Below, piece after piece: positions 13,005 to 57,974 of a stretch of DNA of 64,000 bases. Numbering within the stretch: position 1 is the first letter of the stretch; every line of letters begins with the position of its first letter. This DNA comes from Pseudomonadota bacterium. Its GTDB lineage: Bacteria; Pseudomonadota; Gammaproteobacteria; Burkholderiales; JAKAFK01. The notes beneath the pieces are model-generated. The model saw nothing but the letters and a program-made list of their open reading frames with translations, ran no database searches and was not told the DNA's origin. A program made the position numbers and the translations under genes. The DNA lies in the NCBI GenBank assembly GCA_021817985.1, contig JAKAFK010000004.1, forward strand, positions 13,505 through 77,504. The letters run 5' to 3'.

Positions 13005-13008
13005 GGGA

Positions 13009-13464
13009 TCACTCGCTTCGCGTGGCAAGGGGAGACAGCTGCGGCAGGCCTTCGGTCCCGAGGGCCTCGGGTTCGTGCGCGAGCCACTGGGAACGCAATG
13101 CGTCCGGGCGCGGGGTCTCATACCCGGAAGGCGGCTTGATCGAGCCCCATGGCGTCGTCCGTATTGGAAACGTGAACTGTTGGACCCTTCCGTCGCGATA
13201 CCGGATCTTCCAGGAAATCACGCCTTTGCGCTCTTCCCGGCGCACCCGCACGCTGTGGCCGAGGGGGGCGAAGTCGGCATACCCGCGCACGTCGATCGCA
13301 TGCTGCGGGCATGCCTTCACGCAGGAATAGCATTCCCAGCAGAAATTCGGCTCCACGTTGTACGAGCGTCGGTAGCGGGGCTCGATGTGCATGATGTCCG
13401 AAGGGCAGATGTCCACGCACTCCCCGCATCCGTCGCACCTCGCCATGTAGGTGAAGGTCGGCAT
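13009..13464 (-). CDS. aprB: APS reductase beta subunit (2x[4Fe-4S])
   Basis: MPTFTY..RCDGCGECVDICPSDIM, CWECYSCVKACP, RGYADFAPLG. Confidence 0.95.
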   Translation of the reverse strand: MPTFTYMARCDGCGECVDICPSDIMHIEPRYRRSYNVEPNFCWECYSCVKACPQHAIDVRGYADFAPLGHSVRVRREERKGVISWKIRYRDGRVQQFTFPIRTTPWGSIKPPSGYETPRPDALRSQWLAHEPEALGTEGLPQLSPLATRSE

Positions 13465-13469
13465 CGAGG

Positions 13470-14228
13470 CTACCCCCCGTCGTCGCCGCGCTCGCGCGCG
13501 GGGGGCGGCAGGTCGGATGCCCCGCTCGCCTCGTCCCGCTTCGCCTGAAACGCCAGCACGGGCTTGTAGAACATGTGGGGAAACTTGGACCACGCGACGG
13601 TGACGAAAAGCAGCGTCGTCACGCCGCCGTAGAGGCCGGACAACACCTTGATCGCGGCCATGTTTGCGCTCAGCTCTCCCCATTCGAGCAAGAGACCGAA
13701 GGCGACGCTCGCAAGCAGCGAGGCGAGGAACAAATCGGCGCGCCGCAGCCGCCACGCCGACTGGCCATCATGCGTCACGTCGACCCGCAGGAAGAAAAAA
13801 AACCAACCGCTGCCGACCAGCGTCATCAGGGCACCGATGTTCCAGCACACCGGCAAAATCAGCGGCGGGTGACGTTCGGCGGGATAGCCGAACACCAAGG
13901 CGACGGTGGTCGCCACATAGAGAATGAAACCGTAGAACATCAAGGCGTGAGCGATCCGCTTGGCGCGGTTGCAGAATTCGCCGAAGGCCGCGAGATCGAT
14001 GAGGAGCGTGCGCGCCGCAAGCCGCAGGCCCTCACGCGCACCCAGCGCGCGCCTTGCGGCGGCACGCGCTCGCCGCCGATCCCGCAGGAAGAAGGCCGCC
14101 TTCTTCCCGTGAACAAGGTCGTACGAGGTGCCCAAGGCCACGGCAAGCGCCATCAGGACGAGGTAGCCCCGCAGGATGTCCGGAGACACGAAGGACACCA
14201 ATGGCGCAAAGGGATTGCCGATCAGCAT
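13470..14228 (-). CDS. aprM: APS reductase membrane anchor
   Basis: Multi-TM protein with GEFCN..RIAHALMFYG and WSKFPHMFYKP, directly upstream of aprB. Confidence 0.88.
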   Translation of the reverse strand: MLIGNPFAPLVSFVSPDILRGYLVLMALAVALGTSYDLVHGKKAAFFLRDRRRARAAARRALGAREGLRLAARTLLIDLAAFGEFCNRAKRIAHALMFYGFILYVATTVALVFGYPAERHPPLILPVCWNIGALMTLVGSGWFFFFLRVDVTHDGQSAWRLRRADLFLASLLASVAFGLLLEWGELSANMAAIKVLSGLYGGVTTLLFVTVAWSKFPHMFYKPVLAFQAKRDEASGASDLPPPARERGDDGG

Positions 14229-24486: not shown

Positions 24487-24676
24487 GGTTCGTCCTCTTC
24501 CAGTCGACGCCATTTACGAAGCAAGATGCGTACCAATGAGAGCCCACCGCCGCTTCATCGGCCGCCAGGAGAGAAATGGGGTCAGGATGGCCGCGAGACA
24601 AGCCTGCGTCCCGCCGCGGCAAGAGACAAGGCGGCCTTGGGGCGGCGCCCACGGCCTCACATGAACGGGTGATGCC

Positions 24677-26861: not shown

Positions 26862-26878
26862 AGCAGGAAATGTGCCAT
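26862..26878 (-). promoter_or_regulatory. Sigma-54 promoter of glnA
   Basis: TGGCAC-ATTTC-CTGCT (GG-N10-GC). Confidence 0.8.
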
Positions 26879-31320: not shown

Positions 31321-31977
31321 TCAAGCCGGAGCGAGTTCCTTCTTGGCCGCCGGCTTCTTCGCAGGCTTGGCCGCCGCGCCCGGTGCAGCCTTGGCCGCCG
31401 GCTTCTTCGCGGTCTTGGCCGCCACGCTCGCCACCGCCTTGGCAGCGGGCTTCTTGGCTACCGCCTTCGGGGCCGCAACCTTCTTGGCCGCGGGGGCAGC
31501 CGCTTTCACCGCCTTCGGGGGCTTGGCACCCTTCTTCGCGGCGGCCTTCGCCTTGGGCGCAACTGCCTTGACGGCCTTCTTGGGCGCGGCCTTCGCTTTG
31601 GGCGCATCCGCCTTGGCGCTCTTCGCTGTCGAGGCCTTGGCGACCGCCTTGACAGCCGTCTTCGCCTTCGTCTCCGCCGTCTTGGTGGCTTTCGCCTTGG
31701 TGGCCGCAGGCTTCACCGCCTTGGCGGCTTCCGCTTTTCCGGCCTTCTTGGCCACAGTCTTCGGCTGCGCGGCCGCTGGCTTGGCGGCCTTCTTCACCGC
31801 CTTGGCCTTGGGCGCGTCCGCTTTCGCCGCTTTCTTCGCCGGGGCTTTGGGAGCGGCCGCAGCCTTCTTCGACGGCGTGGCGATCGAGGCGGCGGCCGTC
31901 ACCTTCTTGGCCGGCGCAGCCTTCTTGGCTACGGCCTCGGTTGCGGTTGTGCTCTTGGTCTTCTTGGTTCCTGCCAT
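31321..31977 (-). CDS. Histone H1-like Lys/Ala-rich nucleoid protein
   Basis: Almost entirely K/A/P/V/T with KKAAPAKK, KKPAAK and AKADAPKAKA repeats; GGAG RBS upstream. Confidence 0.85.
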   Translation of the reverse strand: MAGTKKTKSTTATEAVAKKAAPAKKVTAAASIATPSKKAAAAPKAPAKKAAKADAPKAKAVKKAAKPAAAQPKTVAKKAGKAEAAKAVKPAATKAKATKTAETKAKTAVKAVAKASTAKSAKADAPKAKAAPKKAVKAVAPKAKAAAKKGAKPPKAVKAAAPAAKKVAAPKAVAKKPAAKAVASVAAKTAKKPAAKAAPGAAAKPAKKPAAKKELAPA

Positions 31978-32639
31978 ACCTGGACTCCTTCTCGAACAGT
32001 TAACCCGCTGTCATACTTGGCGGAAAGCGTGCGCACGGACGCACTTCCAAGGCCACGGCAGCACGGAACTCGCCGATGTCGACGCCCCTGAATGCGCGTC
32101 TTTGCTTGGTGCGCCCATTCTATTCCACATTTTCGAGAAAACACAACAAGTTGATGGCAGTTGATGGAATTTTTCGTGACGTTCGTGGCGAATTTTTTTC
32201 GGGATTTCGGTTCCCGTCTCCGAACGATCGTATAACCATCTGTATTGGCGTGATAATTTTGCCGCCCTTCGATTCCTTTTTAGGCGACAGAAAAAATTCG
32301 CCCGAGGTGCACTTTGTGCAGGCGCGTCTCGGCCCAAAAAGGGATGGCCTCGGCGTTTCCACCACATAGCGACACGCGGCGCAACCCTATTCCTCTACTC
32401 TGGGCAAGGCGCGGGACGTGTGGGCATCCGCGACGCCCGATGGATGCGCGCGTCCCGGCGCGGGAGACGAATCCAGAAGTGGCCTTTTTTATGGCTCGCG
32501 AGCCGTTTGGGCAGCCTGTACAATCGGTTCCGCGGACTCACGGCAAAAAAGGATGCGGCCGACCCCTGCGCCGTTGGCCGAGCCGCGCGGTGGCCGCCCA
32601 CGCACAAGCCTCTGGCGCAGGGATTCCAAGCGACACGAG

Positions 32640-33131
32640 ATGAGACTTCGAGCAGATTCAGATGCCGCGGCAATTCGCCGCTTCCCTGCGCACTATCGGC
32701 CATGGCGCGATGCGCTATTTTGGCTGGCGGTGCTGGCAGCGCCCGTGTTCTGGGCGGGACTGGAACTCCTTACCCATCCGACCGTCGATCCCTACTGGCC
32801 GCTGCACGAACCGCGGCGCTTTGCGCTGGTCGCCCTCGCGTATCCGGTTCTGGAAGAAATCGTATTTCGCGGCATGCTGCAGGAGTGGTTGCGCGAGCGC
32901 TGGCCCAACTTCGGTCCAACGGCCGGCATCACCGGCGCGAATCTCCTCACGAGCGCCATCTTCAGCGCCGCGCACGGTCTCGCTCATCCGTTGCCCTGGG
33001 CGCTCGCCACTTTCATGCCTTCGCTGGTGTTCGGGTATTTCAAGGACAAGAGCGGAACGCTCTCGCAGAGCATCGTCCTTCACATCTTCTACAACGCGGG
33101 CTATTTCCTGATTTTTTGGAATCCCCACTGA
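32640..33131 (+). CDS. CAAX/Abi glutamic-type intramembrane protease, JDVT-CTERM-sorting (MrtJ-like)
   Basis: EEIVFRG, FSAAH and HIFYN CPBP motifs; short form with ANLLTS and PSLVFG; a JDVT-CTERM substrate lies 5 kb away. Confidence 0.8.
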   Translation: MRLRADSDAAAIRRFPAHYRPWRDALFWLAVLAAPVFWAGLELLTHPTVDPYWPLHEPRRFALVALAYPVLEEIVFRGMLQEWLRERWPNFGPTAGITGANLLTSAIFSAAHGLAHPLPWALATFMPSLVFGYFKDKSGTLSQSIVLHIFYNAGYFLIFWNPH

Positions 33132-33317: not shown

Positions 33318-35147
33318 CTAAGCCTGCGACGTCGAATACCCAAAATACTCGATATACGGCGCGAGCGTCGTCATGATGGGCTCGAGCGCCTCGCTATAGC
33401 GCCGCCAGCGATATTTCGCGTGCTGGTAGATGGGCTGCGTGACCTGATGATAACTCGCCGTACGGATTACGCGGCGGCTGTTCGCGTGCTCGGCGGGCCG
33501 AAGCACTGCGTCGTCCCATTCCGCGTCCAGAAAGCGCAGCAGTCGCCGGGTTTCGTCTTCTAAATCGTCCACGAGACTCTCATATCGCACGATGTGATAA
33601 TCGATGGGCAGGCTTGACGCGTATTGGATCCACGCCTCCATCGTGCGTGCATACAGGTTTGCCGTGTCCTCCAGCGTATAGAAGTGCGCCGTCGTCACGT
33701 TCGGCGCAAAATGCTGCATGAAACAGCTCAAGCAGACATCGCAGGGATGGCGCACCGCAAGAATGAACTTGGCCTTCGGAAAGACGCGCCAGAGCAAGGG
33801 GGTCAAATAGGTATTTCCGGGATTGCGGTCCACCAGGCGTCGCCCGGCTTGGCGCGTCAAATGCTGAGCGACTGCGCGGCCATACGCGTCCCGGAGCTCT
33901 TGTACGTCGCGCTCGGAAAGGTCGACCAAGGCCCGATCGTCGCCTGGACGCGCCTTGTGCAGAAAGGCTTCCTCTACCGCGTTCGCGGCCGGTTTCTCCT
34001 CCATCGTCTGCAATGTTGGATGGCTATCCAATATCTGATCGAGCAGCGTCGTACCAGAGCGCTGGAAACCCATCAGGAAAATCGGCGCGTCCTTTTCGCC
34101 GCCACGTCCGATTGCCCCTTCCTGTCCGGGAACCGCATAGCGTGAGATCGCCGCGATCTTCTCCAAAAGGATGCCCTTGTCCGCGCCCTCGCCCGAACGC
34201 GACAACAGGCTGCGCCGCTTTCCTTCCTCGAAGTGCCCGAATGCACGCCGGTGCTCGCCAGCGCGGTCATACACCTGCCCGAGGCGCAGGTGCACTTCCG
34301 CCTGGGCTGCATCGTCCAGACGTTGGGCAAGCAAGCTCTCCATCAGCCGGATGGCCTCCTCGGTACGACCATCCTGCCGGGCCAATTTGGCTGCAGTGAG
34401 CGTCAGGGACACCGAGTGCGGATCGACCGCAAGGCCCTTTGCCACAAAAGCCCTTGCCTCTTCGAGCCGGTTCGTCCGCTCGCAAAGCTCCGCCAATGAC
34501 GCAAGCGCTTCGAGACCATCCGGGGCGAACGTCAACGCCCGCAACAATTTGGCGCGAGCCTCGTCTTCACGATTGTCCGCCCAAAGCAACAACCCTTGAT
34601 TGACAAGAAGGTGGGGATCGTCGGGATGAATACAGGCCGCGCGGTTGAGTACTTCAACCGCGCCCGTGAGGTCGCCCAGTCCCGTCAATAGGGCTCCGAG
34701 ATTGCAGAGCGCCTCGAAGAAATCCGGCTGTATGGCCACAGCCTTGCGATAGTGCCGCGCCGCACCGCTCAGATCGGCGCACGCTCGAAGCGCGTTCGCC
34801 AGAAAAAAATGGCCGTTTGCGAAACCCGGCTCCCATTCAACCGCGCGCCGGTAGCACCCGATCGCCTCGGTCAATTTCTTCTGGCATTCCAAGGACGCGC
34901 CTAGCGCGTGATGAGCGGCAGCCCAACGCGGCTCGAGCGTCAAGGCGCGCTTCGCGCAGGACTCGGAATCCGCATGAAGCCCCAGATTCAAGTAGATGTT
35001 GGCCAGCATGAGCCAAGCTTCGGCATCAACCGTGTCGATCCGACACAACTGCTGGCAAAGCTCCCGCGCCTCGGCGAACAGGCCCTTGTCCAGCAGGGTC
35101 TGCGCGCGCCTCTTCTTCGATCGTGTCAAAACGTCAGACTTTGCCAT
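33318..35147 (-). CDS. TPR-repeat sulfotransferase
   Basis: Multiple TPRs, then the PAPS-binding motifs GFQRSGTTLL and RHPCDVCLS, and RTASYHQVTQPIY. Confidence 0.88.
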   Translation of the reverse strand: MAKSDVLTRSKKRRAQTLLDKGLFAEARELCQQLCRIDTVDAEAWLMLANIYLNLGLHADSESCAKRALTLEPRWAAAHHALGASLECQKKLTEAIGCYRRAVEWEPGFANGHFFLANALRACADLSGAARHYRKAVAIQPDFFEALCNLGALLTGLGDLTGAVEVLNRAACIHPDDPHLLVNQGLLLWADNREDEARAKLLRALTFAPDGLEALASLAELCERTNRLEEARAFVAKGLAVDPHSVSLTLTAAKLARQDGRTEEAIRLMESLLAQRLDDAAQAEVHLRLGQVYDRAGEHRRAFGHFEEGKRRSLLSRSGEGADKGILLEKIAAISRYAVPGQEGAIGRGGEKDAPIFLMGFQRSGTTLLDQILDSHPTLQTMEEKPAANAVEEAFLHKARPGDDRALVDLSERDVQELRDAYGRAVAQHLTRQAGRRLVDRNPGNTYLTPLLWRVFPKAKFILAVRHPCDVCLSCFMQHFAPNVTTAHFYTLEDTANLYARTMEAWIQYASSLPIDYHIVRYESLVDDLEDETRRLLRFLDAEWDDAVLRPAEHANSRRVIRTASYHQVTQPIYQHAKYRWRRYSEALEPIMTTLAPYIEYFGYSTSQA

Positions 35148-35362: not shown

Positions 35363-36037
35363 TCAAGACACCTTCCTGCGCCGCGCCACGCCGACGAGGC
35401 CAATGAGCCCCGAGCCCAGCATCCACACCGGCGACGGCAACGGCGTGGGTGCCACCGACGCCACAGCCGCCACGCCATTCAGGGTCCAGACACCCGTCTG
35501 CCCGTTGAACGGACCGCCGACAACCGTACTCCGCCAGTTCATCGTATAGTTGCAGCTGGTGGCCGTACACGCGCTCACGGTTCCGGTCGCCGAACCGCCC
35601 TGGTTGAAGTTGGTGCCGTTCCAGGACGCGAACCAGCTGCTCATGTCCATGGCGATGGTGCTCGCCCCCGTATCGACCGTCCCGGTGGGCGCGGGTCCGC
35701 CGGTGATGGTACCCGTCGGCGAGGTGACCAGATTTTCCGCGGACTGGGCCGTAAACGTGTAGACTGGCGTGCCGAAATAGTTGAAATTAGTGAGCGTTTT
35801 CGCCGAATTCGGCTCCGCGGACGCCGTTGCCGTGCCGCCCTGGTAGGATCCCATAACGATCGGGTCCCCGCCGCCTGCCGTGATCGCGGGAGCCACCGAG
35901 GGCGAGCCCGTCAAAAAGAAGTTGCCCCCGGTGACCGTCAAACTCGTCACGTTCTCAGTGGCCGCATGCGACGCCATGGACGCCACGCCGAAAATCGCGC
36001 CGAGTGCGACGCTCAACAGCTTATGTTTGCCTTTCAT
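35363..36037 (-). CDS. Secreted VPLPA/PEP-CTERM surface protein
   Basis: Signal peptide ..ASHA; tail PTPLPSPVWMLGSGLIGLVGVARRRK. Confidence 0.88.
   Translation of the reverse strand: MKGKHKLLSVALGAIFGVASMASHAATENVTSLTVTGGNFFLTGSPSVAPAITAGGGDPIVMGSYQGGTATASAEPNSAKTLTNFNYFGTPVYTFTAQSAENLVTSPTGTITGGPAPTGTVDTGASTIAMDMSSWFASWNGTNFNQGGSATGTVSACTATSCNYTMNWRSTVVGGPFNGQTGVWTLNGVAAVASVAPTPLPSPVWMLGSGLIGLVGVARRRKVS
35470..36020 (-). repeat. Copy 1 of a duplicated ~550-bp coding segment (copy 2 at ~39630-40190)
   Basis: Shared peptides YFGTPVYTFTAQSAENLV, WFASWNGTNFNQGG and WRSTVVGGPFNGQTGVW; DNA differs mainly at third codon positions. Confidence 0.9.
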
Positions 36038-36152
36038 AGAAAGTCTTCTCCAGTCAGAAAGAGTCAAGAAACGGTCGATTTCTAGGTTGACGTTTTGCAC
36101 GGTCAGCTTTTATGGCTATCGGTTTGAACGCAAGCTGCCGCACGTAGGGTAA

Positions 36153-36280
36153 AGCAACAGGCATGCCACACCCAACACTTCCAAATAATTATCTATAACA
36201 TCATCTAGTTGCAAAATGACAAAGTGGTAACCTCATAGTGCGTTAGAGACATTGGCCAGACGTTGTAAAATTTACTGACA
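36153..36280 (-). promoter_or_regulatory. Sigma-54 promoter, IHF-like site and 17-bp enhancer
   Basis: TGGCAT-GCCTG-TTGC (36154-36168), CATCATCTAGTTG near 36199, and TGTCAGTAAATTTTACA (36264-36280). Confidence 0.78.
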
Positions 36281-36962
36281 CCGTAAGCCATTCAACGGTG
36301 GTTCATCAGACGCTGTTTGCAGCCCTTCGAGGGGCCTCTCGCACCGCCGCCGCTAAGTGGGCGAGGATCGGAACCTCCCTTGCGCAGCAGTGAATCCTAT
36401 CTATTTCGCCACGCGCATTGCCTTCGGCCGCACGCAGTTGTGGGGCTTGTGCGCCTGCGACACACTCTACGCAGGAAAGGGCACCGACGGTTTTGAGGAG
36501 ATGTCTATAAAGCCTGTAAAACGCACCGACACGCGATGGGCCGTACCCATTTCGTCAAGGCAACAGCCCTAATCTGCCTCGATGAGAAAGCCACCACCAT
36601 CCCCAAGACCGAGAGAGATTGCCACCCCGACGCAAGGCGCGCGACGGCAACACTAACCGTCTAAATATCCGTTTCCAAGCCATGGGTATTGCCGCATTAG
36701 AGAAGCACGACGGATTGCGAATGACGTATGGATTGAAGAATCCTGAGGGGGCCTGGCGGGCTCTACTGGGAGCCCTTTGGGCTAAGCGGTCTTGTGAAAA
36801 AGACCAAGGAGAGAATGGCGAATCTCTCCTGGAGCATGGGAACGCTATCGGCCGAATGTCCCGGATCGGGACCACATCTTCGCCGATGGAGAAGGTGGCG
36901 CGAGAGCAACTGGCGGCGCGCGACGACCTGTGTGCACGCGCCCCCTAGGATTGCTCCTGCGC

Positions 36963-37871
36963 TCAACTCCCCGCGCTTCTCGCAGCAGTGGCGAGGGCAT
37001 CGCGGATCGCGGCCGGCGCACCCATGATATTGACGAAACTGTGACTCCCTACCATCGACAGATCCGGAAAATCGATCGCGATGCGGAAGCGCGCGGCCAG
37101 GGCATAGACCTTTGTGCCGTCCACCAGAAGTTCATACGGCAAATAGGGGGTCGACTTGATCGGTTTGAAGTCGATCTGGCTCATGATGTAGCGGTCATCC
37201 ATGTCGCGGTTGCCGCCAGGACCTGCGTTCATGGCGACGCCGAAAAGTGTCTGCTGCGAACTCGGCATGTTGATCTGATAAACCTGGGTCACGCCCCCCT
37301 TGCCGGCGGCCAGGTTCGCCTCAACCGCTTGAACGGCGGCCTGGTGGCTGGGATAGGTCGCGAGCTTGCTCGGGTCGGTGAAATATTCCATCCCGAACAT
37401 GTAATGGTAGTGGCGCAACTGGCTCGCGGTCATCCCCTTGGCCCCATAGGCACGCTCGTCGCCTAGGGCAGCCTCGAGCTTTGCCGCCACGCCTTTGAGA
37501 TCCTTTTTCATGCGGTAGGCATTCGCCATATAGACCGGATTCGTGTACGACACCTGGATGGAATTGCCCACCTGGGTCAGCGCGATGTGCTGGGCGGCGC
37601 CGAACCCTCCCATGGGAGACAGCCCGGCATCGGTCTTCAGCGCCGAATCGGTCACGCAGATGACCGTCGCCCCCGGATAGGGCGTAAACTGACCGGCAAT
37701 GGTGAATCCTTGCTTCTGCAGCGCCGCCTTGGTCTGGGCCACTTTTGCCGCCATGCTGCCTGGCGTATTGGAGGCCAGGATGAACGGCTTCAAGAGTTGG
37801 TCAGCGTGGGCGGTCGCAGTCATGGCGGCAGCGACACCGATGAAGCAGATTTTTTTCAGCGTTCCTTTCAT
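36963..37871 (-). CDS. Uncharacterised periplasmic protein (possibly tandem DUF302-like)
   Basis: Signal peptide ..TAHA, coding-like composition, RBS GGAGAGG; motifs HYHYMFGMEYF, LPYELLV and RFRIAIDFPDL. Confidence 0.75.
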   Translation of the reverse strand: MKGTLKKICFIGVAAAMTATAHADQLLKPFILASNTPGSMAAKVAQTKAALQKQGFTIAGQFTPYPGATVICVTDSALKTDAGLSPMGGFGAAQHIALTQVGNSIQVSYTNPVYMANAYRMKKDLKGVAAKLEAALGDERAYGAKGMTASQLRHYHYMFGMEYFTDPSKLATYPSHQAAVQAVEANLAAGKGGVTQVYQINMPSSQQTLFGVAMNAGPGGNRDMDDRYIMSQIDFKPIKSTPYLPYELLVDGTKVYALAARFRIAIDFPDLSMVGSHSFVNIMGAPAAIRDALATAARSAGS

Positions 37872-37947
37872 GAACCTCTCCTTACATGGCATGGGTGTAC
37901 AAACACTTGGACGTTCCTCACGGCAGCGTGCACGCCGCGCGCGAGGG

Positions 37948-40206
37948 CTACGACTTGCGCCGCCGCCGGCGCGTTAGGTAGCCGACGCTGGCGAGCACCA
38001 TCCCGACCAGAACGGGGTCGAATCCTCCGTTTGGATCAAGGGTACAGCCCCCGCTGCCGCCCACGCCGCCCCCGGCGCCGCCGCTCGTGGTGGTGTTCAA
38101 GGGAATGCCGACCGCAAGGGGATCCACGATCATGCCGGACCCCGGGTCCTCGTTGAGCGGGCCGTTAACCGCAACATTCATGGTGAGCGTCATGCCATCG
38201 CTGGAAATCGTCACCTGATTCGTGATGTCGGTCCACCCGGACTTCGTCACCTTGTAGATCCGGGTCCCCGCCGGCAACGCCGTCGGGAATGTCAGAGTGA
38301 CACCGACTGTGCCGGTGACCGGCTGCGTTGGGCTGCCCACCGTGTAGGTAATGACGCCGTAACGGTAGAAATCGAACCCGGCCGGGCGGGCGGCCGGCGA
38401 ATAGCCGGCTGCCCTAAGATCCGTATCGCTCGGACTCAGCTGGGAGTTCAGCGTCACCGGCGGGGTGGTACCCGAACCGTCGACGGCAACGGTCACCGCC
38501 CCGTGCGGGGTCACTACCGCTCCCGAGCAGGGCACGTCGACGCCGGACGGACCCCCGTTCACGTTGCCGGTCAGGTACAGGGTGTAGGGGATATTGATGA
38601 ACGGTCCACTCGGGACGATTGCGGAGTAGACCAAGGTATAGGGATGGCCGTAGACGCCGTCCCACTGGAATGTGGCGGGGGCGCCGCTGCCCATGGGAAT
38701 CGCCGGCGTCGTGTTCCATGCCACCGTCCAGCCGCTCAGATCCAGGTGTCCGTTGCCATAGTCCGTGACCGGCTTGACCGTATACTCGTAGCCCGGCGCG
38801 CTAAAGAAGCTCCAGGTGTTGTCGATCGGCGTGTTGCTGACGCCCGGCAGACCGGCATAGCCCTGGGTCACGCCGATCTCGATGGGATGGCTTTGCGAAA
38901 TGGTGGTGAATAGTTGCTTCCCGGGAGAGACTTCCATGGCGAATTTCGATCCCGGACAAATCGTCAGGTTATCTCCGGTCGCCGCGCTCAGCACAGGATT
39001 GATTCCGCCGGTGGTCGAGAAGTTGATGGCGGGGGGGGCTGTCAACGGATCGCCCTCGGCATCGGTGGCCCCGGCGTTGAACGTCACCGTATACGTCGTG
39101 CTCTTGTTCAGTCCACTCACCGGGTAGACGAAGGCCATGTCGTCCGTGGTCGTCGGCGTTCCGACGGTGACGCCGCCCGACACGGAAGGGAAGCTTGCGA
39201 CCGTCGACGGATTCATCGGTTCGTTGAAATTCACGGTGATCGTCGAGGTGCTGGGCGAGATGCTGGTGTTTGCCTGCGGCGTCGTCGCGGTCATGGCGGG
39301 CACGAGAGCGGCGGTCACCGTCTCCGTAGGGGGCGCTACAACCGAATCGCCCGAGGCGGTCGTCGCCTGAGCGGCATTGAAGCTCAGGGTATAGCTCTGT
39401 CCGGGCTGCAGGCCGGAGAGCGGGAACGTATAGGTCAGACCGTCCGCGCTGGTGGGCGCGCCGACCGACGGCGAACCGGTCCCGGTGGTGGCGATCGAGA
39501 CAAACCCGGCCGCACTCGTGACCTTTTCGCTAAACGTGACGGAGATGGACGGATTGTTGTAGCTGACGGTGGAGCCGTCGCCGGGCGTCACGGTGGCCTT
39601 GGCCGTCGTCGTCGCGGCAGCGGTCGAAACCGTGCCGTTCAAGCTCCACACACCGGTCTGGCCATTGAATGGCCCCCCGACCACGGTCGACCGCCATGCC
39701 ATCGTGTAGGCGCAAGTCGTCGCACCGTTCGAAACCGTGCAACTGGAGATGGTCCCTGTCGCCGCCCCCCCCTGGTTGAAATTGGTTCCGTTCCACGAAG
39801 CGAACCAGCCACTCATGTCCATCGAGAGGGTGCCCGCACCCGTATCGATCGTCCCGGACGGGGCTTTCCCGCCGGCAATGGTACCGGTTGGCGCGCTCAC
39901 CAGATTTTCGGCGGACTGGGCCGTAAAGGTATAGACAGGGGTTCCGAAGTACTTGAAGTTGGTGAGCGTTTGCGCCGGGTTCGGCTCCGCCGAAGCATTG
40001 GCGGTGCCTCCCTGGTAGCCACCCGTCACGATCGGCTCACCCGGGCCCGCGGTGATCGCAGGATTCACCGTCGGGGACCCCGTCAAATAGAAGCTGCCCC
40101 CGGTGACCGTCAGATTCGTCACGTTCAATACCGCCGCCTGAGACGTCAGGACGACGCTCCCGAAGATCGCGCCGAGCGCGAGGCTTAATGCTTTTTCTCT
40201 CATCAT
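37948..40206 (-). CDS. Large surface protein: N-terminal domain, two Ig-like domains, related internal domain, choice-of-anchor-U-like domain and JDVT-CTERM tail
   Basis: Signal peptide; Ig-like TFSEKV and NFNEPM..L...TTYTVT; NGPLNEDPGSGMIVDP; tail GGSGGCTLDPNGGFDPVLVGMVLASVGYLTRRRRR. Confidence 0.85.
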   Translation of the reverse strand: MMREKALSLALGAIFGSVVLTSQAAVLNVTNLTVTGGSFYLTGSPTVNPAITAGPGEPIVTGGYQGGTANASAEPNPAQTLTNFKYFGTPVYTFTAQSAENLVSAPTGTIAGGKAPSGTIDTGAGTLSMDMSGWFASWNGTNFNQGGAATGTISSCTVSNGATTCAYTMAWRSTVVGGPFNGQTGVWSLNGTVSTAAATTTAKATVTPGDGSTVSYNNPSISVTFSEKVTSAAGFVSIATTGTGSPSVGAPTSADGLTYTFPLSGLQPGQSYTLSFNAAQATTASGDSVVAPPTETVTAALVPAMTATTPQANTSISPSTSTITVNFNEPMNPSTVASFPSVSGGVTVGTPTTTDDMAFVYPVSGLNKSTTYTVTFNAGATDAEGDPLTAPPAINFSTTGGINPVLSAATGDNLTICPGSKFAMEVSPGKQLFTTISQSHPIEIGVTQGYAGLPGVSNTPIDNTWSFFSAPGYEYTVKPVTDYGNGHLDLSGWTVAWNTTPAIPMGSGAPATFQWDGVYGHPYTLVYSAIVPSGPFINIPYTLYLTGNVNGGPSGVDVPCSGAVVTPHGAVTVAVDGSGTTPPVTLNSQLSPSDTDLRAAGYSPAARPAGFDFYRYGVITYTVGSPTQPVTGTVGVTLTFPTALPAGTRIYKVTKSGWTDITNQVTISSDGMTLTMNVAVNGPLNEDPGSGMIVDPLAVGIPLNTTTSGGAGGGVGGSGGCTLDPNGGFDPVLVGMVLASVGYLTRRRRRKS
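39630..40190 (-). repeat. Copy 2 of the duplicated coding segment
   Basis: Same shared peptides as copy 1 (35470-36020), with a 4-codon insertion (VSNG) in this copy. Confidence 0.9.
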
Positions 40207-40398: not shown

Positions 40399-41709
40399 CT
40401 AGAATTTAAGCCCATACGCGATCTCCCACTCGTTCTGAAACATCTCCGCCACCGCAGTCACAGGTGTTGAGTTTTCGAAAAGAAGGGTTGCGGTTTGGCG
40501 CTTCTTCTTCGCATAGACCCATGCAAAAGACACCGACGAGTCGGCCCCCATGAAGGAACGCCCCAGCTGATAGGTAGCGCCCAGTGTGTAGTGCGTTTCA
40601 ACGATGCCCGGGGCAAGAAGATTGAACAGCAACTGGCTGTCCGGAATTGGGCTCTTGCCATAGTTATAGCCGGCTCTTAGCGTCAGTTTCCGGTTGAAGT
40701 GATAAAGGAAACCGAGCTTGTAGACGGTCTGGTTCTGCCAACCGAACCCCATGCCGCCATTGGCACCTAGGGATGTCGTATTAATCGTCGCACCCGAATA
40801 GAGGAGAGAGGTCGGACCCAAGTTGCCTATCGAGGGCACGTCCGAATAAAGGATGCGTTCCACATCCAGGGCTGCATCCAGCTTATTGGGAATCACCTTG
40901 ACGGCAACCCCGACCGCATAGTTGGCCGGGACGTCGAAGGCCCCGCCATTGGCAAAAAGCCCCCGGTACTTGGTGAATTTCTGCATGTACTCCTTGGTGG
41001 CGTACGTCGCGCCGAGGCTGAGCCGGTCATCGAGGAAATGCCCGAGCCAGCCCACCCGTGCGCCGAGTCCCCATGCATAGTCGTGCCCCTGATTGGTGAC
41101 GTTATTGGGGTATGCCGACATCGCCGTGAACGCGCTCAGCCCCTGCGCGGCAAAGCGCTGCCCCGCAGGAACCAGCGAGATTCCGAACGATTGCGAGTCC
41201 ACCGGACGCCATGCGACCGTAATCGGGATGAAAAGCTGCACCAGATCGACCCCCAGCTTGCCCCCACCGTTCGGCGTGGTGGAGAAGAAGTTGGTGCTGT
41301 ACGTCGTGTCCATGCCGCCGTTCCCCACCGCAGCGACCCCGAAGGACCACCGGTGGTTGTAGGCGAAAGAAACGCCCATCCCTGGGACCAGATAGGTGTT
41401 GGAGCCGCTCTTGACGCACTCCGCGCCGCCACTGCCGTTAGGACTCCCGTCGTTGAGACCGACTTCCCCCGCGCAACGGCGCGGGTCGAAGACGCCGACA
41501 CCGACGTCGAATCGGGTGCCGACGTCACTCAAGTTTGCTGGATTCGCCGCGGCCGAAATGGAATTCTGGGGGTACGCCACCGCCGCCCCTCCCATCCCGT
41601 CCGCCGCTGTCCCATACCCGATGGCGAAATAACCGTTCGTTGCAAAGGCCGCCGGGGCGGCGAGCCAGGCACCCAACCCTACGAGCGCCCAGTAACGGGG
41701 TTTCCACAT
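40399..41709 (-). CDS. OmpP1/FadL-family outer-membrane channel
   Basis: TNGYFAIGYG...GMGGAAVA..Q...AAANPA plug motif, GNGGMDT, LRAGYNYGKSPI and terminal Phe. Confidence 0.9.
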   Translation of the reverse strand: MWKPRYWALVGLGAWLAAPAAFATNGYFAIGYGTAADGMGGAAVAYPQNSISAAANPANLSDVGTRFDVGVGVFDPRRCAGEVGLNDGSPNGSGGAECVKSGSNTYLVPGMGVSFAYNHRWSFGVAAVGNGGMDTTYSTNFFSTTPNGGGKLGVDLVQLFIPITVAWRPVDSQSFGISLVPAGQRFAAQGLSAFTAMSAYPNNVTNQGHDYAWGLGARVGWLGHFLDDRLSLGATYATKEYMQKFTKYRGLFANGGAFDVPANYAVGVAVKVIPNKLDAALDVERILYSDVPSIGNLGPTSLLYSGATINTTSLGANGGMGFGWQNQTVYKLGFLYHFNRKLTLRAGYNYGKSPIPDSQLLFNLLAPGIVETHYTLGATYQLGRSFMGADSSVSFAWVYAKKKRQTATLLFENSTPVTAVAEMFQNEWEIAYGLKF

Positions 41710-41910
41710 AACCGCGTCTCCCTTCATTCAGGAAAATGATTGCTCCAGCTGGGCAGCCCAATCGCCTGCCCGCCCATGTTTTGCGTTGTCTTGGCCGTCA
41801 AACAGTGCGCTGCCGCAGGCCGCGCCGTTGCCTTGAACGGTGTCACGGCAACGGAGGACCGGCGCGCCACACTGCGGTGAGGCGCTAACGACGGGCTAAC
41901 GTGTTTCGGG

Positions 41911-42537
41911 TTAAATGAACAGGCACACGTCGGATGTCTGCGCCGTCGGCAGGAACGACGCGGCACCCACGTAGTCGGATACCTCCGGGATGAATTCGGA
42001 TCGATCGAAACCGAACAGGTCGACCGTCATCTGGCAGGCAACGAATTTGACGTCTGCCTCAATGCACAGCGTCCGCAATTCCGCGATGTCGGCGACGCCG
42101 ACGTTGCCGATGGTTTTCTTCATCAACGTGGTCGCCAATGCCTCATAACCGGGGATCGCCGCCTGGACGATATTCGGAATGTTCCAGTTGATGGCCCTAA
42201 ACCATTTTGGCCCCATGGGCATTTTCATCGGCATGGCCGGATTGCCTAAGGGGCTGACTTGCGCATCAAAGTTCTTCTTGAGAAGGGTCAATCCATAGAA
42301 GGTGAAGAAAATCGCCGTTTCCCACCCCAGCGCCGCCGCGGTCGACGCCAGAATGAACGGCGGATAGGCCCAGTCGAGCGTGCCTTTGGTGGCGATTATG
42401 GAAAGCTTAGGGACCTTTTTCTCGTTGAGCTCTGCAAGCTTGCGCTCCAAGATTTCGTCAAGCCGCTCCTCGATGCGCGCATCCACGAGGTGCTGCACGT
42501 CAAGAGGGGTCTGGATGGTTTCGGCGCGAGTGGTCAT
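41911..42537 (-). CDS. dsrE2: DsrE2-type sulfur carrier protein
   Basis: LSIIATKGTLDWAYPPFILASTAAALG..FFTFYGL..PLGNPAMPM..ACQMTVDLF..YVGAA..SDVCLFI. Confidence 0.88.
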   Translation of the reverse strand: MTTRAETIQTPLDVQHLVDARIEERLDEILERKLAELNEKKVPKLSIIATKGTLDWAYPPFILASTAAALGWETAIFFTFYGLTLLKKNFDAQVSPLGNPAMPMKMPMGPKWFRAINWNIPNIVQAAIPGYEALATTLMKKTIGNVGVADIAELRTLCIEADVKFVACQMTVDLFGFDRSEFIPEVSDYVGAASFLPTAQTSDVCLFI

Positions 42538-42689
42538 TTAGTACGTCTCCTCGTAGGATGGATCTCTATGCGGTTAACGTTTTTTCACCATAGCACATGC
42601 TTTAGTGTGCATTAGACAATATTGGAACAACTTTCATAGGTGATTAGCGACTCGTCATGGGGTACGCTGGGACAATGCGCTCTAGGACA

Positions 42690-42784
42690 GCAACATTTAT
42701 GCCAAGATCACTACGCCCTTGCAGTTCATGCGGTTATGAATCGTTCGCGAGCGTCCATGACATGTCATGTAAAAATTGGTGACA
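42690..42784 (-). promoter_or_regulatory. Sigma-54 promoter and 17-bp enhancer upstream of dsrE2
   Basis: TGGCAT-AAATG-TTGC (42690-42704) and TGTCACCAATTTTTACA (42768-42784). Confidence 0.78.
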
Positions 42785-49139: not shown

Positions 49140-49437
49140 GTATCCTCCCGCTCGAACAGCGCAGCCGATGGGGCGTATGTCGGAGAACGTCGACTGTAGA
49201 CTTCTGCACGCGCCCGCCGCGATCCTTCCCGTTATAGATGATTTTTCTTGTTTTCTCCGTGATCGCACCTGGGCGACAGCCGGCTCCCGCCCGACACGCG
49301 AGCATGGAAAACGGGCCACACGGGGGCCGGTTAGACGGGAAAAAACCGTCGATATCTGGGTCGGCGCGGGTCGCGCACATTTTCGGAAACGCGCAGGCCG
49401 CAGGGTGCGGCAAGCCGTGTCGCGCCTCGCGCAGCAG

Positions 49438-49524
49438 CGTCGAATTTTTTTACAACGGCGCGCGCGCCCTACGGGCCAATACCTTTCCTATCCGCGGATT
49501 AGACCATCGGGCCCGGTTCTTGCT
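49438..49524 (+). promoter_or_regulatory. 17-bp enhancer and sigma-54 promoter
   Basis: CGTCGAATTTTTTTACA (49438-49454) and GGGCCC-GGTTC-TTGC (49509-49523). Confidence 0.7.
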
Positions 49525-49594
49525 GTCCCCGTCTACGCGCGCCGCGGGAGGCGCTGCGCTTCCAAACACATCAACTAAACGGAGAAGACAAGTC

Positions 49595-50344
49595 ATGACA
49601 AGAAGACGGCTGGGAACGAAGAGGATCTGCACGATCGCCCTAATGTGTGCCGCAGCGGGAGGGACGGCACAGGCTCACGCATCAACCGCCATAGGCCTCG
49701 ACCCGATCCTGAATTTCAATTTCAATGGCAGTTTCAGCATGTACGATTCGACCGGCGCATTGGTCGGCGGGGACAATACGCTTTCCGGAAGCATACATCT
49801 GGACACCGCAACCTTCGGCGGCACTGCGACCATGTCGGATCCATCGCCGTTTTTCGGCTCCCACTGGTACGCGCATGATATCCAAATATCGGCCACGCCC
49901 GACCTCGCCAACGGCAGTTTTTTAGCGAACTCCCACATGCTGTTCGACTGGGGACCGGCAACGACGGCGACCTCGTGCGGTGTTGCGGTCTGCGATTACA
50001 GCATCTACACCCAATTCCAGATTGCGCCTACGGTCAATTTGCACCTTGCGTCGTGGACCAGCCTGACAAGCGGCACGCCGTTCAACGTCACCACCACCGA
50101 CGCGGACGGCGACGGGATTCCCGGAAACCAGATCACGTACGGTCCATTCAAGGGATTCTCGCCCGCGTTTGACGGCACCGCCACGTTTCAAGCGATAAGC
50201 CTCGGCTACATCGCGAATGACAACATACCGCCCGTCGATCCTACCCCTCTGCCAGGCACGGCGCTGCTCCTCGGGTCTGGGCTCCTGGGCATGGTGAGCG
50301 TCGCCCGCACACGCAAAGCTTCGCTGAGGCGCGCAAGCGCGTAG
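49595..50344 (+). CDS. Secreted PEP/VPLPA-CTERM surface protein
   Basis: Signal peptide ..AQAHA, DADGDGIPG, tail PTPLPGTALLLGSGLLGMVSVARTRK. Confidence 0.85.
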   Translation: MTRRRLGTKRICTIALMCAAAGGTAQAHASTAIGLDPILNFNFNGSFSMYDSTGALVGGDNTLSGSIHLDTATFGGTATMSDPSPFFGSHWYAHDIQISATPDLANGSFLANSHMLFDWGPATTATSCGVAVCDYSIYTQFQIAPTVNLHLASWTSLTSGTPFNVTTTDADGDGIPGNQITYGPFKGFSPAFDGTATFQAISLGYIANDNIPPVDPTPLPGTALLLGSGLLGMVSVARTRKASLRRASA

Positions 50345-50562: not shown

Positions 50563-50657
50563 CGTCGGCTTTCTTTACACAATCGAGCGTCATCCTCTGC
50601 ATCATTATATTAATACTCTCTAAATCATGCAGATAGATGGCTGGCATTTTTTTTGCT
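50563..50657 (+). promoter_or_regulatory. 17-bp enhancer and sigma-54 promoter
   Basis: CGTCGGCTTTCTTTACA (50563-50579) and TGGCAT-TTTTT-TTGC (50642-50656), with an AT-rich IHF-like spacer. Confidence 0.78.
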
Positions 50658-50742
50658 GATCGATAGCGGCCAATTTAATCCGGCATGGTTAGGACGCGCA
50701 AATGCGACTGTAAGAGTCACCACTGGAGAACAGGAGAGCGCA

Positions 50743-51423
50743 ATGATCAGAGAATGGATGACAACGAGAAGACGTTGGGAGGCAATCGCGACGTGCAGTT
50801 TGTGCCTGTTCGCGGCCAAAGCGCATGCCTCGTCGGCGTTCGGCACCCTGCCCGTCGGGCAGGTCGATGTCGGCACTTCGGCGGTGGCCGAATGGAAACA
50901 CGGGAGCCACCCGATCCTCGCCGACTGGGACATGTTTTCCGACCGCTTCGCCTCCCGTATGGAGCATCGCGAAGCGGAGCGGATCGCTTACGACACGGGC
51001 ATGCCCATCGGGGATCTCGCGGAAGGCAGGTGGAGCTTGCTCAAGCGCTGGACAACATGGAGTATGCCATGCCATAGCGAAGATTGCCGAGGTGACGCCG
51101 ACACGCGCACCGGAACCGCCTCGTGGCTTGCGTGGGACCTCGCGCGATGGAACGGCATGCCTGACGAGGCGCGCTTCGCATTTCGCCTGGCGCAGAGTCG
51201 ATGGGAGCACCTGTCGGATGATCCGCTTGCGCGTCCCCCCATCCGATGGCTCGTCCCAGGATGGCTCAGCGGCCGGATCACCGTGGGACTTGTGAGGCTT
51301 GACCGGATTGCCGACCGATCACCTTCCGTCGACCCCGTCCCGATCCCTGAGCCGCTCACGCTATTGGGTTCAGGACTGCTTGGACTGGTCGGATTCGCGC
51401 GCAGGCGCCGCCCACGCCCTTAG
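50743..51423 (+). CDS. PEP-CTERM protein with Trp-rich core
   Basis: Signal peptide ..AKAHA; tail PVPIPEPLTLLGSGLLGLVGFARRRR. Confidence 0.78.
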   Translation: MIREWMTTRRRWEAIATCSLCLFAAKAHASSAFGTLPVGQVDVGTSAVAEWKHGSHPILADWDMFSDRFASRMEHREAERIAYDTGMPIGDLAEGRWSLLKRWTTWSMPCHSEDCRGDADTRTGTASWLAWDLARWNGMPDEARFAFRLAQSRWEHLSDDPLARPPIRWLVPGWLSGRITVGLVRLDRIADRSPSVDPVPIPEPLTLLGSGLLGLVGFARRRRPRP

Positions 51424-56387: not shown

Positions 56388-57974
56388 CTAGTTCGGAATG
56401 TAGCTGGTCAAGCGCGGAACCGCGGCACGAGCAAAACTGCTCAGGATCCGGTCGGCATGGCTGGGCGCTTCGCCGGGCGAGAGTTCCGTGGTCAAACGCA
56501 CCAGCGCGCCGTCCGTGCGGTTTCGCCGGAGCGCATCCCACAATAGATACCATTTCGCCAAGTATTCATTGGTAATGATCCTCCCCCGCTCCTGGAACCA
56601 GTAATACACCAGATCCTTGACATTCCCCTTGGCGATGACCAGACGATTCACGCGGAGCGGGTGCCCATTGACCCGCACCCCGCGCACATCTCTTTGCGTA
56701 AGGCTCGTAATTTCCCAGCCGCCCCCCGGAATGCAGGTGCGCGGCGAATGCGCCGACGCGCCCTTGCGCTGCGATGCGTAGTAGGCCACATAGAAATTGA
56801 CCGGCTTGCGCGCCGCGCCGATATAATTGGCCAACAGGTAGTCGGTGAATTTCAGCTGTTTGATGTAGATGTCGTCCAACTGTCCGCCCCGCCCTTGCCA
56901 GCCCGGAAGGCGCATGGGGAAGGTCGAAAAATCCTTTCGTTTCGGTGTGACTTCGGCTCGCTTGGGGAGCACAGTGGTGGCCAGGGCAACGAGAGCAAGA
57001 AGCCCCAACGCGACCAAATAGGAGGTCGGCAGCCGTCGGACGTGGGCACGCCGCACGCGGTCCGAGCGCGGCCCCTCCAGCCCAAATACTTCAGCCAAAT
57101 GGCGCCTGTCTTTGCCCATGCGGGCCATGACCCACATTTCCCCCACCAGAAGCGCCGTGCAGATCATGAAGATCACCCAGCCCTCGAACAGATGGAGGAA
57201 ACCCTCGGCCATCGCGCGGCCCCACCAGTCGACCGTCACACCCACCAAACCGATCCGGAAGCTGTTCATCAACACCGTCATGGGCACGGTGGAGGCGAAC
57301 ACCAACGCTCGTTTCCAGAAGGGCGCCTGAAACAGGTAAGCTGCCACGAACCCCAGAGTCATCAGCGGAAACAGGTAACGCAACCCGCTGCAGGCGTCGA
57401 CGACCTGCAATTTCAGGCTCCCGAGATCGATGACGTTGCCAGCAAGGTAGACACTGTCCCCGAACGCCCGAATGAAGTCCACGCCCAACCGCGAGGACAA
57501 CAGCTCGAGCTGCTCGGAAAGATTGTTGTAAAGAAAATTCGGCAACGGAATCATCAGGCCCAGGATCAGCACCGGGATACCGATCACCCGAAAGGCCCGC
57601 GGGCCCATGAAAGCCAGCGTTACGCCGGCCAGAACGACGAGAAAGGCATACTGCACCAAAATGTAAAGGGCGGAGAGCTGTCCTGCGGCATAGAGCAGGG
57701 CGCCCAGCAACACCACCGCGACCCCTGCCCAGGAACCGTCGAACGGCAGGCGCGCCAGTCGATCCGAGCGCTGCCAGACGAGGAAAAGCGCAATCAATGG
57801 AATCAATGGACCATAACTATATTCGGCATGGGCCGGACTGAACCACCATTGCGCCATCACCGCGAGTCCGGTATGGAAGACGGTCGCGAGAAGAACGGCC
57901 GCGACGGCTATTGAAGCCCAGGCTGCGACTGACAGCTTCCAAAGGCGGGGTTCGTGTCCGCTGACCGCATCCAT
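56388..57974 (-). CDS. Exosortase (VPLPA-CTERM type, XrtD-like) fused to EpsI domain
   Basis: VVDACSGLR (Cys), NSFRI (Arg), FLHLFEGW (His); EpsI HSPRTCIPGGGW..DGALVR. Confidence 0.9.
   Translation of the reverse strand: MDAVSGHEPRLWKLSVAAWASIAVAAVLLATVFHTGLAVMAQWWFSPAHAEYSYGPLIPLIALFLVWQRSDRLARLPFDGSWAGVAVVLLGALLYAAGQLSALYILVQYAFLVVLAGVTLAFMGPRAFRVIGIPVLILGLMIPLPNFLYNNLSEQLELLSSRLGVDFIRAFGDSVYLAGNVIDLGSLKLQVVDACSGLRYLFPLMTLGFVAAYLFQAPFWKRALVFASTVPMTVLMNSFRIGLVGVTVDWWGRAMAEGFLHLFEGWVIFMICTALLVGEMWVMARMGKDRRHLAEVFGLEGPRSDRVRRAHVRRLPTSYLVALGLLALVALATTVLPKRAEVTPKRKDFSTFPMRLPGWQGRGGQLDDIYIKQLKFTDYLLANYIGAARKPVNFYVAYYASQRKGASAHSPRTCIPGGGWEITSLTQRDVRGVRVNGHPLRVNRLVIAKGNVKDLVYYWFQERGRIITNEYLAKWYLLWDALRRNRTDGALVRLTTELSPGEAPSHADRILSSFARAAVPRLTSYIPN

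Follow-up and report, generated by a model that had tools for sequence, protein, structure and literature searches.

One barrel domain, two C-terminal sorting signals: a candidate surface module pairing an exosortase client with a JDVT-CTERM protein

Why would a bacterium keep the same domain on two neighbouring proteins and route them through two different sorting systems? The question is raised by two genes in a stretch of 64,000 nucleotides from contig JAKAFK010000004.1 of a Burkholderiales genome (assembly GCA_021817985.1); we refer to this whole stretch as the window. The first gene, here called the short gene, encodes a secreted beta-barrel domain followed by a VPLPA-CTERM-type tail, while the second, the long gene, starts with the same domain and ends in a JDVT-CTERM tail. 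Our best reading is that they form a two-protein surface module joining two known C-terminal sorting systems, a matrix subunit and a lipid-anchored stalk that carry the same binding module. The components all belong to known systems. What is new is the coupling: an unnamed barrel is shared by a predicted client of the exosortase XrtD and a predicted client of the intramembrane protease MrtJ, which lie side by side and are kept matched in several lineages. The main coordinates are collected in Table 1.

An earlier note, made from the letters alone, had described the domain as near-identical in the two open reading frames (ORFs), at about 80% identity and with mostly synonymous changes. Both ORFs and the shared domain are indeed present where the note placed them. 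BLASTP aligns the two proteins with 143 of 189 residues identical (76%, E 2e-95, signal peptides included), and over the 163 aligned codons of the mature domain the identity is 79.8% for amino acids and 76.7% for nucleotides, so that "near-identical" was an overstatement. By the Nei-Gojobori method there are 64.2 synonymous and 49.8 non-synonymous differences, giving a non-synonymous rate (dN) of 0.151, a synonymous rate (dS) of 0.867 and a dN/dS of 0.17. Synonymous changes are therefore in the majority, but they make up only 56% of the differences. In blastn the two genes share a single block of 556 columns at 75.4% identity, which starts in codons 7-8, within the signal peptide, and stops where the domain does; neither upstream of the start codons nor past the domain end is any similarity found. 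Across the whole genome (184 contigs, 96% complete) tblastn finds the barrel domain in these two copies only, to which a profile search adds a divergent copy B further down the long protein.

The same pair, in the same arrangement, is present in a sister species; in the following G000 is the window's genome and G001 that of the sister species. Between the two species the dN/dS is 0.12 for the domain of the short gene (dS 0.39) and 0.13 for that of the long gene (dS 0.64). Together with the value between the paralogues, this agrees with the selection on both copies that the earlier note had suggested. The paralogue dS (0.83-1.03) is higher than the orthologue dS (0.39-0.64) and the longest identical run between the copies is 18 nucleotides, indicating that the match is old and that both copies have been retained. 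There is no sign of recent conversion between the window's two copies. They were thus matched before the two species split, and have been under purifying selection since.

The long protein continues past its barrel through the Ig-like domains that the earlier note had reported. Copy B, which follows them, is also detected by BLASTP (31% over 49 residues, E 0.016), and the long protein of a further genome, G088, has an equivalent at residues 455-606. The C-terminus reads GGC-TLDPNGGF-DP-VLVGMVLASVGYLT-RRRRRKS, that is, a single Cys, an Asp at +9, a hydrophobic helix and an Arg-rich end. As the note had proposed, it is recognised as a JDVT-CTERM tail by the corresponding hidden Markov model (HMM), with an even higher score, 51.1 bits, in the genome scan. 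In an AlphaFold2 model of the long protein residues 26-195 are confident and 210-400 moderate, while the predicted local distance difference test (pLDDT) is under 50 for residues 400-752.

The tail of the short protein is tripartite, TPLPS-PVWMLGSGLIGLVGVA-RRRK, and lies at the extreme C-terminus within the last 30 residues. The earlier note had called it a VPLPA/PEP-CTERM tail. The VPLPA assignment is borderline: against VPLPA-CTERM (TIGR03370) the protein scan gives 25.2 bits, 0.15 under the cut-off of 25.35, while a six-frame scan of the genome gives 28.0 bits, over the cut-off and at the top of the genome's 7 matches. The Pfam PEP-CTERM model gives 14.5 bits, under its cut-off of 20.7. A GTG at 36100 is an alternative upstream start of the short gene and would extend the protein to 245 residues.

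The candidate enzymes for both tails are in the window, as had been claimed: each passes the cut-off of its family model. MrtJ is the single copy over the cut-off genome-wide, and the motifs EExxxR and HxxxN, named in PMC11980579, are read from its translation as EEIVFR and HIFYN. Its ORF could start at 32418; homologous frames have 166-173 residues. Genome-wide there are two JDVT-CTERM proteins, the long protein and a subtilisin-like protein outside the window (contig C78:101565-103925, plus strand, 42.3 bits), which has weak subtilisin/mycosin-like matches and is encoded on the contig of MrtJ, at a distance of about 50 kb. The MrtJ system consequently has at least two clients here. The genome encodes two exosortases, XrtD and XrtA, the latter on contig C159.

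Table 1. Position of the paired genes, their domains, the sorting enzymes and other features of the window
Feature	Coordinates	Strand	Details
Short gene	35363-36037	minus	224 residues from ATG; signal peptide (Sec), barrel domain residues ~27-193, VPLPA-type tail
VPLPA-CTERM-type sorting tail, short protein	35372-35443	minus	residues 199-222: TPLPS motif, hydrophobic helix, RRRK
Shared tract, short gene	35474-36016	minus	blastn block
Long gene	37948-40206	minus	752 residues: signal peptide, barrel copy A, two Ig-like domains, divergent copy B, choice-of-anchor U, JDVT-CTERM tail
Shared tract, long gene (copy A and part of signal peptide)	39634-40188	minus	blastn block
Two Big_5/CopC-like Ig-type domains, presumed stalk	39013-39609	minus	residues ~200-398; Pfam Big_5 E 1.7e-18 (2 stretches), CopC E 1.2e-10
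Divergent partial barrel copy B, long protein	38554-38985	minus	residues ~408-551; domain HMM 26.7 bits, independent E 7e-10, profile positions 95-159
Choice-of-anchor U domain, long protein	38104-38364	minus	residues 615-701; NF041766 43.8 bits, cut-off 32 (passed)
JDVT-CTERM sorting tail, long protein	37957-38061	minus	residues 716-750; NF033191 46.5 bits, cut-off 27 (passed)
MrtJ, glutamic-type intramembrane protease of JDVT-CTERM system	32640-33131	plus	NF033192 104.8 bits, cut-off 75 (passed); EEIVFR and HIFYN motifs
XrtD, VPLPA-CTERM-specific exosortase fused to EpsI	56388-57974	minus	TIGR04152 556.2 bits, cut-off 400 (passed), profile positions 1-486
Sigma-54-type -24/-12 element TGGCAT-N5-TTGCT	36168-36153	minus	TGGCATGCCTGTTGCT; 131 nucleotides before short gene's ATG; one mismatch to TGGCAC-N5-TTGCW
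Weak sigma-70-like hexamer pair TTTGCA-16-GATAAT	36215-36188	minus	9/12 matches
Intrinsic-terminator-like hairpin	35318-35289	minus	45 nucleotides past short-gene stop; 13-pair stem, 10 G-C, T run
Sigma-54-type element	42689-42704	minus	upstream of DsrE2-like gene 41911-42537
Sigma-54-type element	50642-50657	plus	upstream of PEP-CTERM protein gene ~50653-51423
Sigma-54-type element	24520-24535	minus	upstream of ntrB
Sigma-54-type element	26862-26877	minus	upstream of glnA
TPR and sulfotransferase protein	33318-35147	minus	directly downstream of short gene; Pfam Sulfotransfer_3 E 1.9e-36 and TPR repeats
Secreted 309-residue protein between short and long genes	36963-37892	minus	55 nucleotides downstream of long gene
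FadL/PorV-like outer-membrane barrel	40399-41727	minus	directly upstream of long gene; Pfam Toluene_X E 3.6e-22; weak PorV_fam match

Is the pair particular to this genome? Of 401 genomes sampled from the order, 37 have JDVT-CTERM tails (a tally that includes the unpublished G293), with up to 7 matches per genome and often 2-7, which exceeds the single one per proteome given as typical when the system was described. Many of the JDVT-CTERM proteins of the order are large and protease-like, and stand beside an inhibitor-like or propeptide-like ORF. We took the neighbourhoods of 49 JDVT tails; one had no complete ORF, which left 48 JDVT ORFs. Five of the 48, from five genomes and three families, have a nearby exosortase-tailed (VPLPA-type) short ORF that shares their N-terminus. 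The identity between the long and the short N-terminus is 64-82% (74% in G000, 78% in G001, 64% in G088, 82% in G050 and 67% in G034). In G088, G050 and G034 the long proteins pass the cut-offs of JDVT-CTERM and choice-of-anchor U, the latter being found in G001 as well, and the short proteins at the same position pass VPLPA-CTERM (TIGR03370) with 32.0, 29.8 and 30.3 bits, respectively.

The sorting enzymes accompany the pair. XrtD is present in all five pair-carrying genomes of the order, and a single contig holds the pair with MrtJ and XrtD in G000, G050 and G034, the pair with XrtD in G001, and MrtJ with XrtD in G088. Another genome, G140, has a short protein and XrtD, without MrtJ or a JDVT tail. 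A scan of genome contigs gave a sixth pair in another metagenome-assembled genome (MAG), at locus L072, where the identity is 72% over 207 residues and the long protein has choice-of-anchor U followed by a different Cys tail.

Further clusters were found at loci L064 and L075; of the two MAGs that carry them, one is gammaproteobacterial and from groundwater, and the other belongs to Desulfobulbia. Each encodes two long Cys-tailed proteins, together with several exosortase-tailed short ones in L064 and one in L075, and their barrel domains have low mutual identity. The module thus extends beyond this order, with L064 and L075 using a Cys tail that the JDVT model does not recognise. The number of short-gene copies also varies, with two in G088, three tailed ORFs in G050 and at least four in L064. 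The second short copy of G088 (L013, contig C154, 81-809, minus strand) is 52-54% identical to the long N-terminus and has a VPIPA motif and a helix, while the basic cluster is missing; this copy may be decaying.

Within a lineage the N-domains of the long protein and of its short neighbour are alike (62-82%), but between lineages they are not. Long-long and short-short identities between lineages are both about 25-37% (for G000 against G088, 29-32% for the long and 25-34% for the short proteins), and the domain comes in two flavours, the G000/G088 type and the G050/G034 type, which are 24-27% identical. The remainder of the long protein is orthologous, with 36% identity over 684 residues between G000 and G088. 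In a maximum-likelihood tree the N-domains group by lineage and not by protein type, with supports of 100/99, 100/100 and 100/99. A single clade of the five long N-domains is rejected (difference in log-likelihood 483, p-value of the approximately unbiased test 6e-103); as this constraint was named after the pairwise identities were known, the formal p-value is weakened, but the effect size is not. Within pairs the dS ranges from 0.44 to above 3, indicating that the re-matching events are of different ages, while the within-pair dN/dS is 0.06-0.33. The long N-domain has thus been re-matched to a neighbouring short gene independently in several lineages.

In which direction did the sequence move? 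The four sequences from the window's genome and its sister species nest among short VPLPA proteins, while P0119 and further long proteins have N-domains that make up a clade of their own. P0119 has the same collinear architecture as the window's long protein at 29% identity. The different placement despite the shared architecture indicates that the 5' part of the long gene was replaced by short-gene sequence. We also considered that the long protein arose in this lineage alone, when the domain of the short gene was fused to a JDVT protein, and dropped this because P0119 is collinear; replacement or conversion of an existing long N-domain fits better than fusion.

What kind of domain is it that is kept matched? 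An AlphaFold2 model of the short protein, built from an alignment of 69 relatives, has a mean pLDDT of 86.2, with strands over residues 27-192 and a C-terminal helix at 203-223. Residues 27-193 are modelled as an up-and-down eight-stranded beta-barrel, followed by the tail helix. Foldseek against the PDB returned nothing for the barrel at E <= 0.001, and a sequence profile of the domain gave only a chance match to PDB chains (E 0.17). In VIA-align the best matches (Z 9.3-8.7) are designed and outer-membrane eight-stranded barrels, and further rows contain YceI-like proteins and surface-lipoprotein barrels.

In Pfam and NCBIfam no model covers the barrel domain, the only trace being a sub-threshold partial match to PepA, which is seen in the short protein and in many family members. 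For the PEP-CTERM family FxDxF (NF038126, cut-off 50 bits) no window protein has a match up to E 1, while some distant members of the barrel-domain family score 38-50 bits. An atlas search for the domain found unnamed clusters only, from Actinomycetota and Pseudomonadota. An exhaustive search gave 196 cluster representatives with the domain at E <= 0.001, many of them long forms, whereas a less sensitive word-indexed homologue search for long forms had returned only the proteins of the window and of the sister species. Among 150 listed proteins we scanned 75 for families and read all tails by eye. Most relatives are short, about 200-240 residues, and end in VPLPA-, PEP- or PEPxxWA-type tails. 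In longer ones the barrel is accompanied by choice-of-anchor U and by a JDVT or another Cys-containing tail, and some actinobacterial-looking relatives have LPXTG-like C-terminal signals or none. Since it is found with so many different C-terminal tails, the barrel is a widespread unnamed domain of the "choice-of-anchor" kind.

How could such a pair work? From what is known of the exosortase family, the short protein would be exported by Sec, held by its tail helix, cut by XrtD and handed to the exopolysaccharide matrix; its gene would be driven by the sigma-54-type promoter and end in a terminator, like the gene for the floc protein PepA. By analogy with MYXO-CTERM and MrtX, the long protein, once exported, would receive its lipid on the tail Cys, be cleaved by MrtJ and end up exposed on the outer surface. 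If it is anchored by its C-terminus, its barrel comes to lie at the far end of the Ig-domain stalk. The pairing suggests that both barrels bind one common partner, either the polysaccharide of the locus, probably sulfated, or each other. The long protein would then link the cell to a matrix to which the short protein contributes, and the two binding modules would be kept matched by conversion or replacement that brings short-gene sequence into the 5' end of the long gene.

That the pairing is conserved and has been repeatedly re-homogenised in other lineages argues for a functional coupling of the two proteins. More specifically, repeated re-matching, exact domain boundaries, purifying selection and a co-conserved neighbourhood all point to a binding partner, polysaccharide or each other, that the anchored and the matrix-borne barrels may share and that would tie cell to matrix; we regard the case for this as evenly balanced.

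Several observations weigh against this reading. Partners are missing for 43 of the 48 JDVT ORFs, many of which are protease-like with inhibitor-like neighbours, although at 14 of the 48 loci there is less than 3 kb of flank on one side, so that partners may have been missed. At L064, L067 and L075 the domain-bearing long and short neighbours are only 30-50% identical; the matching is thus frequent in the module, not obligatory. Three genes separate MrtJ from the long gene, unlike in the system as first described, where 16 of 17 clients adjoin their protease gene. Since the short protein's tail is 0.15 bits under the cut-off and XrtA is also in the genome, its assignment to an exosortase rests on motif and context. 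The modelled barrel is a common, generic arrangement, which gives no clue to ligand or function. Finally, concerted evolution alone does not prove a shared partner, because neighbouring paralogues can homogenise without selection for sameness.

The last point is the basis of the main rival to the shared-partner reading. Here the two proteins would be independent, for example a matrix protein and an unrelated adhesin, and their match would be a functionless result of occasional recombination between neighbouring paralogues. The genes are 1.9 kb apart on the same strand, copies in the short-gene family are born and die, and the three poorly matched loci show that matching is not obligatory. Conversion is also rare, judging from the wide range of dS and the longest identical run of 18 nucleotides. 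However, neutral exchange does not readily account for a shared tract that stops exactly at the domain boundary in the window, for the purifying selection on both copies after each event (the dN/dS of 0.06-0.33), for the same outcome in at least four lineages and two domain flavours, or for the co-conservation of the whole neighbourhood and both sorting enzymes. We consider this explanation unlikely, although it has to be taken seriously.

A narrower version of the shared-partner reading is that the tip of the long protein recognises the barrel of the matrix subunit homotypically, and that conversion matches the alleles within a lineage while the lineages drift apart. We find this rather improbable. 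If it were true, cells would stick only to matrix of their own type, and two C-terminal sorting pathways would provide a kin-specific code for flocs or biofilms, with a logic like that of the TraA recognition of myxobacteria.

The earlier note had favoured another mechanism, a polymer or lattice of the short protein with the long, Cys-anchored copy as nucleator or tether; in the form weighed here, the long protein starts or ends a fibre or lattice of short ones. Pairs of major and minor subunits are familiar from curli (CsgA/CsgB) and from pilins. It would fit such a polymer that both proteins have the same domain with the long one anchored, that the short gene, with a promoter-like element before it and a terminator after it, is monocistronic, and that re-matching would serve the need for homotypic contacts. 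The modelled eight-stranded barrel, on the other hand, is closed, its secondary structure shows neither an evident free edge strand nor a donor strand, and its structural neighbours are monomeric barrels. A prediction of the complex of the two N-domains, made without controls, gave scores of 0.02 and 0.10 against a mark of 0.32, which counts neither for nor against binding. We therefore hold polymerisation to be quite improbable, keep the subunit analogy as a hypothesis and prefer the more general idea of a matrix-borne and a cell-anchored binding module.

Least probable by far is that the long tip is a receptor for phage or predators and the released short protein a soluble or matrix-bound decoy kept matched by conversion: the N-domain is indeed divergent between lineages (25-37%) and matched within a genome, and the short protein comes from a separate, inducible-type promoter, but the remainder of the long protein has diverged to a similar extent (the 36% given above for G000 and G088), so that the tip is not unusually fast-evolving, and dN/dS gives no positive selection.

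The preferred reading, a matrix subunit and an anchored stalk with a common module, gains context from the regulation of the short gene. The earlier note had given this gene its own strong promoter and terminator. The terminator is real, but the sigma-70 match is weak: sigma-70-like sites in the region upstream of the short gene are not above shuffles (2 found, 2.5 expected), and the sigma-54-type element is the better reading. The identical element is present in the sister species at the same distance from the short gene, and sigma-54-like elements also precede the short genes in G088, G050 and L072. A strict sigma-54 pattern within 450 nucleotides upstream is found for 5 of 9 short genes (G000 and G001 not being independent) and for none of 6 long genes. 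With one mismatch allowed, the window holds five matches, each just upstream of a gene; those before glnA and ntrB show this consensus to be in use. A PrsR-type sigma-54 activator is encoded elsewhere in the genome (722.7 bits, cut-off 502.6). The promoter-like elements lie in an unusually long (925 nucleotides) non-coding stretch of lower GC, 36038-36962, between the DUF302-like gene and the short gene.

Several neighbouring genes recur with the pair. The TPR-sulfotransferase gene follows the short gene in G088 too, and a similar gene is nearby in G050. The gene of the FadL/PorV-like barrel precedes the long gene in G088 and G050 as well; a role for this barrel as an outer-membrane route or partner of the lipidated long protein is pure speculation. 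The 309-residue protein encoded between the two genes has no match in Pfam and NCBIfam scans, and its atlas neighbours are clusters in which about 30% of the members carry DUF302. Proteins with a resembling C-terminus, compared by eye and unaligned, are found in the same neighbourhood of G088 and G050, upstream of the FadL-like gene.

The locus around XrtD consists of polysaccharide genes: glycosyltransferases, sulfotransferases, a WecA-like transferase, a heparinase II/III-like protein and a PrsT-like TPR protein. Beside it lies an ORF of 368 residues (49238-50344, plus strand) without a family match and with a weak VPLPA-like tail (16.9 bits), which could be a further XrtD client, or a chance ORF of GC-rich DNA. 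Elsewhere in the window, 31321-31977 (minus strand) encodes a 218-residue Ala/Lys/Pro-rich, histone H1-like or AlgP-like protein without a Pfam match. Genes like those for the adenylylsulfate (APS) reductase AprA/AprB (11163-13755, minus strand) and for the sulfur carrier DsrE2 (41911-42537, minus strand; 217 bits, cut-off 210) indicate that the organism is a sulfur oxidiser. The only sequencing runs that contain the stretch are four DNA (metagenome) runs of one mine-drainage study, possibly the one from which the genome came.

Why does the coupling matter? Systems of the exosortase and myxosortase type are widespread in environmental bacteria, while the roles of their clients and the attachment of matrix to cell are largely unknown. 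The module offers a testable link, as one binding domain is predicted to reach the matrix through XrtD and to become cell-bound through MrtJ. It also provides a natural client pair for tests of MrtJ, so far described in silico only, and a case of two sorting pathways that are linked both in the genome and in evolution. Should the match be functional, it would explain how the flocs and biofilms that sulfur oxidisers form in mine drainage and groundwater hold together, and give a handle for engineering aggregation. The barrel domain, unnamed and widespread, merits a family model of its own. We found no literature on a JDVT/VPLPA pair, in a search outside of which lay subscription journals and supplements, including the lists of species and neighbourhoods of the JDVT-CTERM paper, in which members of the module may already figure; VPLPA-CTERM itself came up once, in an unrelated paper.

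How does the module compare with what is known? In the accessible part of its description (Haft, bioRxiv 10.1101/2023.06.07.544157), the JDVT-CTERM/MrtJ system has a tail with a single invariant Cys, a DP nine residues on, a Leu/Val-rich helix and an Arg cluster, and as a rule a single client in each proteome, whose gene is next to that of MrtJ in 16 of 17 cases. The window agrees in the tail Cys, DP, helix and Arg cluster and in having the cognate MrtJ with EExxxR and HxxxN nearby, and both HMMs are passed. It differs in having two clients, with MrtJ three genes away, where a single adjacent client is described. Further, the system is here part of an XrtD polysaccharide locus and has an exosortase client as its partner, neither of which this part of the description mentions.

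Cleavage by MrtX and surface anchoring of MYXO-CTERM proteins have been shown experimentally, and MrtJ is the in-silico counterpart (PMC11980579, bioRxiv 10.1101/2023.06.07.544157, as far as accessible). MYXO-CTERM/MrtX, with TraA of Myxococcus xanthus as a client, shares with the window's system the enzyme superfamily, the Cys-dependent cleavage, the proposed lipid anchor and the surface display (PMC11980579), and TraA too has a variable recognition domain on a stalk. In contrast to MrtJ, which is predicted only, MrtX has dozens of clients and is experimentally tested; and a secreted partner with the same domain is not described for TraA in the accessible text of PMC11980579.

The short protein can be compared with PepA of Zoogloea and Aquincola, which depends on an exosortase and on RpoN/PrsR (PMC9850573). 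There pepA is RpoN-dependent and its overexpression keeps exopolysaccharide cell-bound. In common are a short secreted protein, an exosortase-type tail, a sigma-54-type promoter and a polysaccharide locus in or near which the gene lies; a lipid-anchored twin of PepA is not described in the accessible part of PMC9850573. The short protein is not a PepA equivalog: it scores 23.8 bits against the cut-off of 80 (NF033554, profile positions 130-261 only), and here a VPLPA tail goes with XrtD, where PepA has a PEP tail and XrtA.

A related concept is that of the "choice-of-anchor" domains of NCBIfam (A, I, U and others), in which one passenger domain precedes different C-terminal sorting signals. 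The barrel domain behaves likewise, with VPLPA, PEP, PEPxxWA, JDVT, other Cys-containing or LPXTG-like tails or none. The usual concept, however, concerns different organisms or unrelated genes, while here both anchors are found side by side in one genome and the copies of the domain are kept matched.

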